DNA from: Patescibacteria group bacterium
Lineage (GTDB): Bacteria > Patescibacteriota > Patescibacteriia > UBA10025 > JAHIVO01
Reading direction: 5' to 3'
Assembly: GCA_028718605.1 (NCBI GenBank)
Contig: JAQULM010000002.1
Coordinates: forward strand, 193,776-257,775
Length of the DNA: 64,000 bases
Continued below: a report on this DNA, generated by a model with database tools. The letters are not shown here.

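Follow-up and report, generated by a model that had tools for sequence, protein, structure and literature searches.

Translation start of the giant genes

In the subfamily of the window's giant gene (window 23133-23135; L004-L008 and L013-L021 among the loci with giant relatives), the start codon is almost always GTG or TTG without a Shine-Dalgarno sequence, and an A-rich spacer lies ahead of the start. ATG starts and short leaders characterize the HTH-bearing genes of a distant clade (L092-L094). The start configuration of the window's subfamily may have been selected to keep initiation weak in genes that are very costly to express. Within the window's leader, the out-of-frame mini-ORF listed in the table is preceded by a strong Shine-Dalgarno-like AGGAAGG, and a -1 slip at A_AAG_TAG would regain the giant frame. 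The mini-ORF was nevertheless regarded as a chance occurrence, because it is not conserved in orthologues.

Features of the window and HTH fusions at other loci
Feature	Location	Strand	Remark
6-codon ORF, MPTGEK-stop	window 23057-23077	minus	out-of-frame ATG inside coding region of N-terminal leader
RodZ-like protein	window 26972-27664	minus	HTH_25 (75 bits) and Glucodextran_B-like C-terminal domain
TrmB-type regulator gene	window 56053-56826	plus	adjoins gene of 1,021-aa protein
1,021-aa protein	window 56798-59863	minus	no Pfam domain; adjoins TrmB-type gene
HTH subtype fused to membrane segment and GT2 glycosyltransferase	L024
HTH subtype fused to membrane segment and 3-keto-disaccharide-hydrolase-like ectodomain	L043/L063
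HTH subtype fused to DNA methyltransferases	L072, P0001

Ectodomain, C-terminus and gene neighbourhood

In the ectodomain encoded by the window (window 1-20000), a module ending in ...YLRS..G..W.FNV.....V.YVDV.DS.A......A..S.......N.NW.F recurs several times, near residues 1830, 2850, 3900, 5350 and 6450, with long stretches rich in Thr, Gly, Ser and Asn in between. This recurrence implies an internal repeat architecture with units of about 1,000 residues.

All complete family members, HTH-bearing or HTH-less, end in a conserved domain of about 150 residues with the pattern ...GTEQFa.s...YYIANI...TEAGxYxxxITYIxTxxF. The termini compared were those of the related proteins P0006, P0007, P0009-P0013, P0022, P0035 and P0036, the C-terminus of the window protein lying outside the window. 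This domain matches nothing in Pfam, lacks both LPXTG and a TM segment, and may serve in cell-surface retention. The HTH-less member P0022 (L010) carries a Peptidase_M14 (carboxypeptidase) domain inside the giant protein, which hints at a peptidoglycan- or peptide-degrading activity in some members of the family.

The synteny around the giant genes is conserved (L007, L008, L092, L093 and L094; L006, L010, L011 and L095). A divergent gene for a LytR_cpsA_psr cell-wall polymer ligase lies upstream, joined in L007 and L008 by a GT2 gene, and on the downstream side there are 2-4 genes whose products of ~330-370 aa contain no Pfam domain, apart from a weak dockerin match for one of them in L006.

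When the first 340 aa of the giant protein were used as query, a word-index protein search missed the query's own cluster and all giant relatives, and an exhaustive search of representatives found thousands; giant proteins appear to be under-represented in the word index used.

HTH domains in other contexts and further regulators

In a series of operons (L026, L028, L031, L033-L036, L038, L048, L050, L051, L056, L060, L069, L073 and L085), a BldC-like HTH gene of ~60 aa is immediately followed by, or shares an ATGA-type overlap with, the start of a gene for a large secreted protein, in which a signal peptide is followed by the N-terminal motif [IL]N[FY]QG[KR]LT and no Pfam domain is found. The same HTH subtype is also found in the fusions listed in the table, with a membrane segment at L024 and L043/L063, and therefore the giant family is not alone in having membrane-linked BldC-like domains.

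Many stand-alone HTH genes of the WDNxG subtype (L040-L091) lie directly upstream of SNF2-type helicase, restriction-modification/methylase or RadC genes. The promoter-proximal TTGkTAAGT motif is absent at these genes, whose placement resembles that of controller proteins of defence systems.

At L009 (1557-2297), a TrmB gene is found directly upstream of the gene for P0013, an HTH-less giant relative, and TrmB may take over regulation in cases that lack the fused HTH. The classical HTH-membrane-ectodomain architecture is represented in the window itself by the RodZ-like protein, whose gene and the giant gene lie 4 kb apart.
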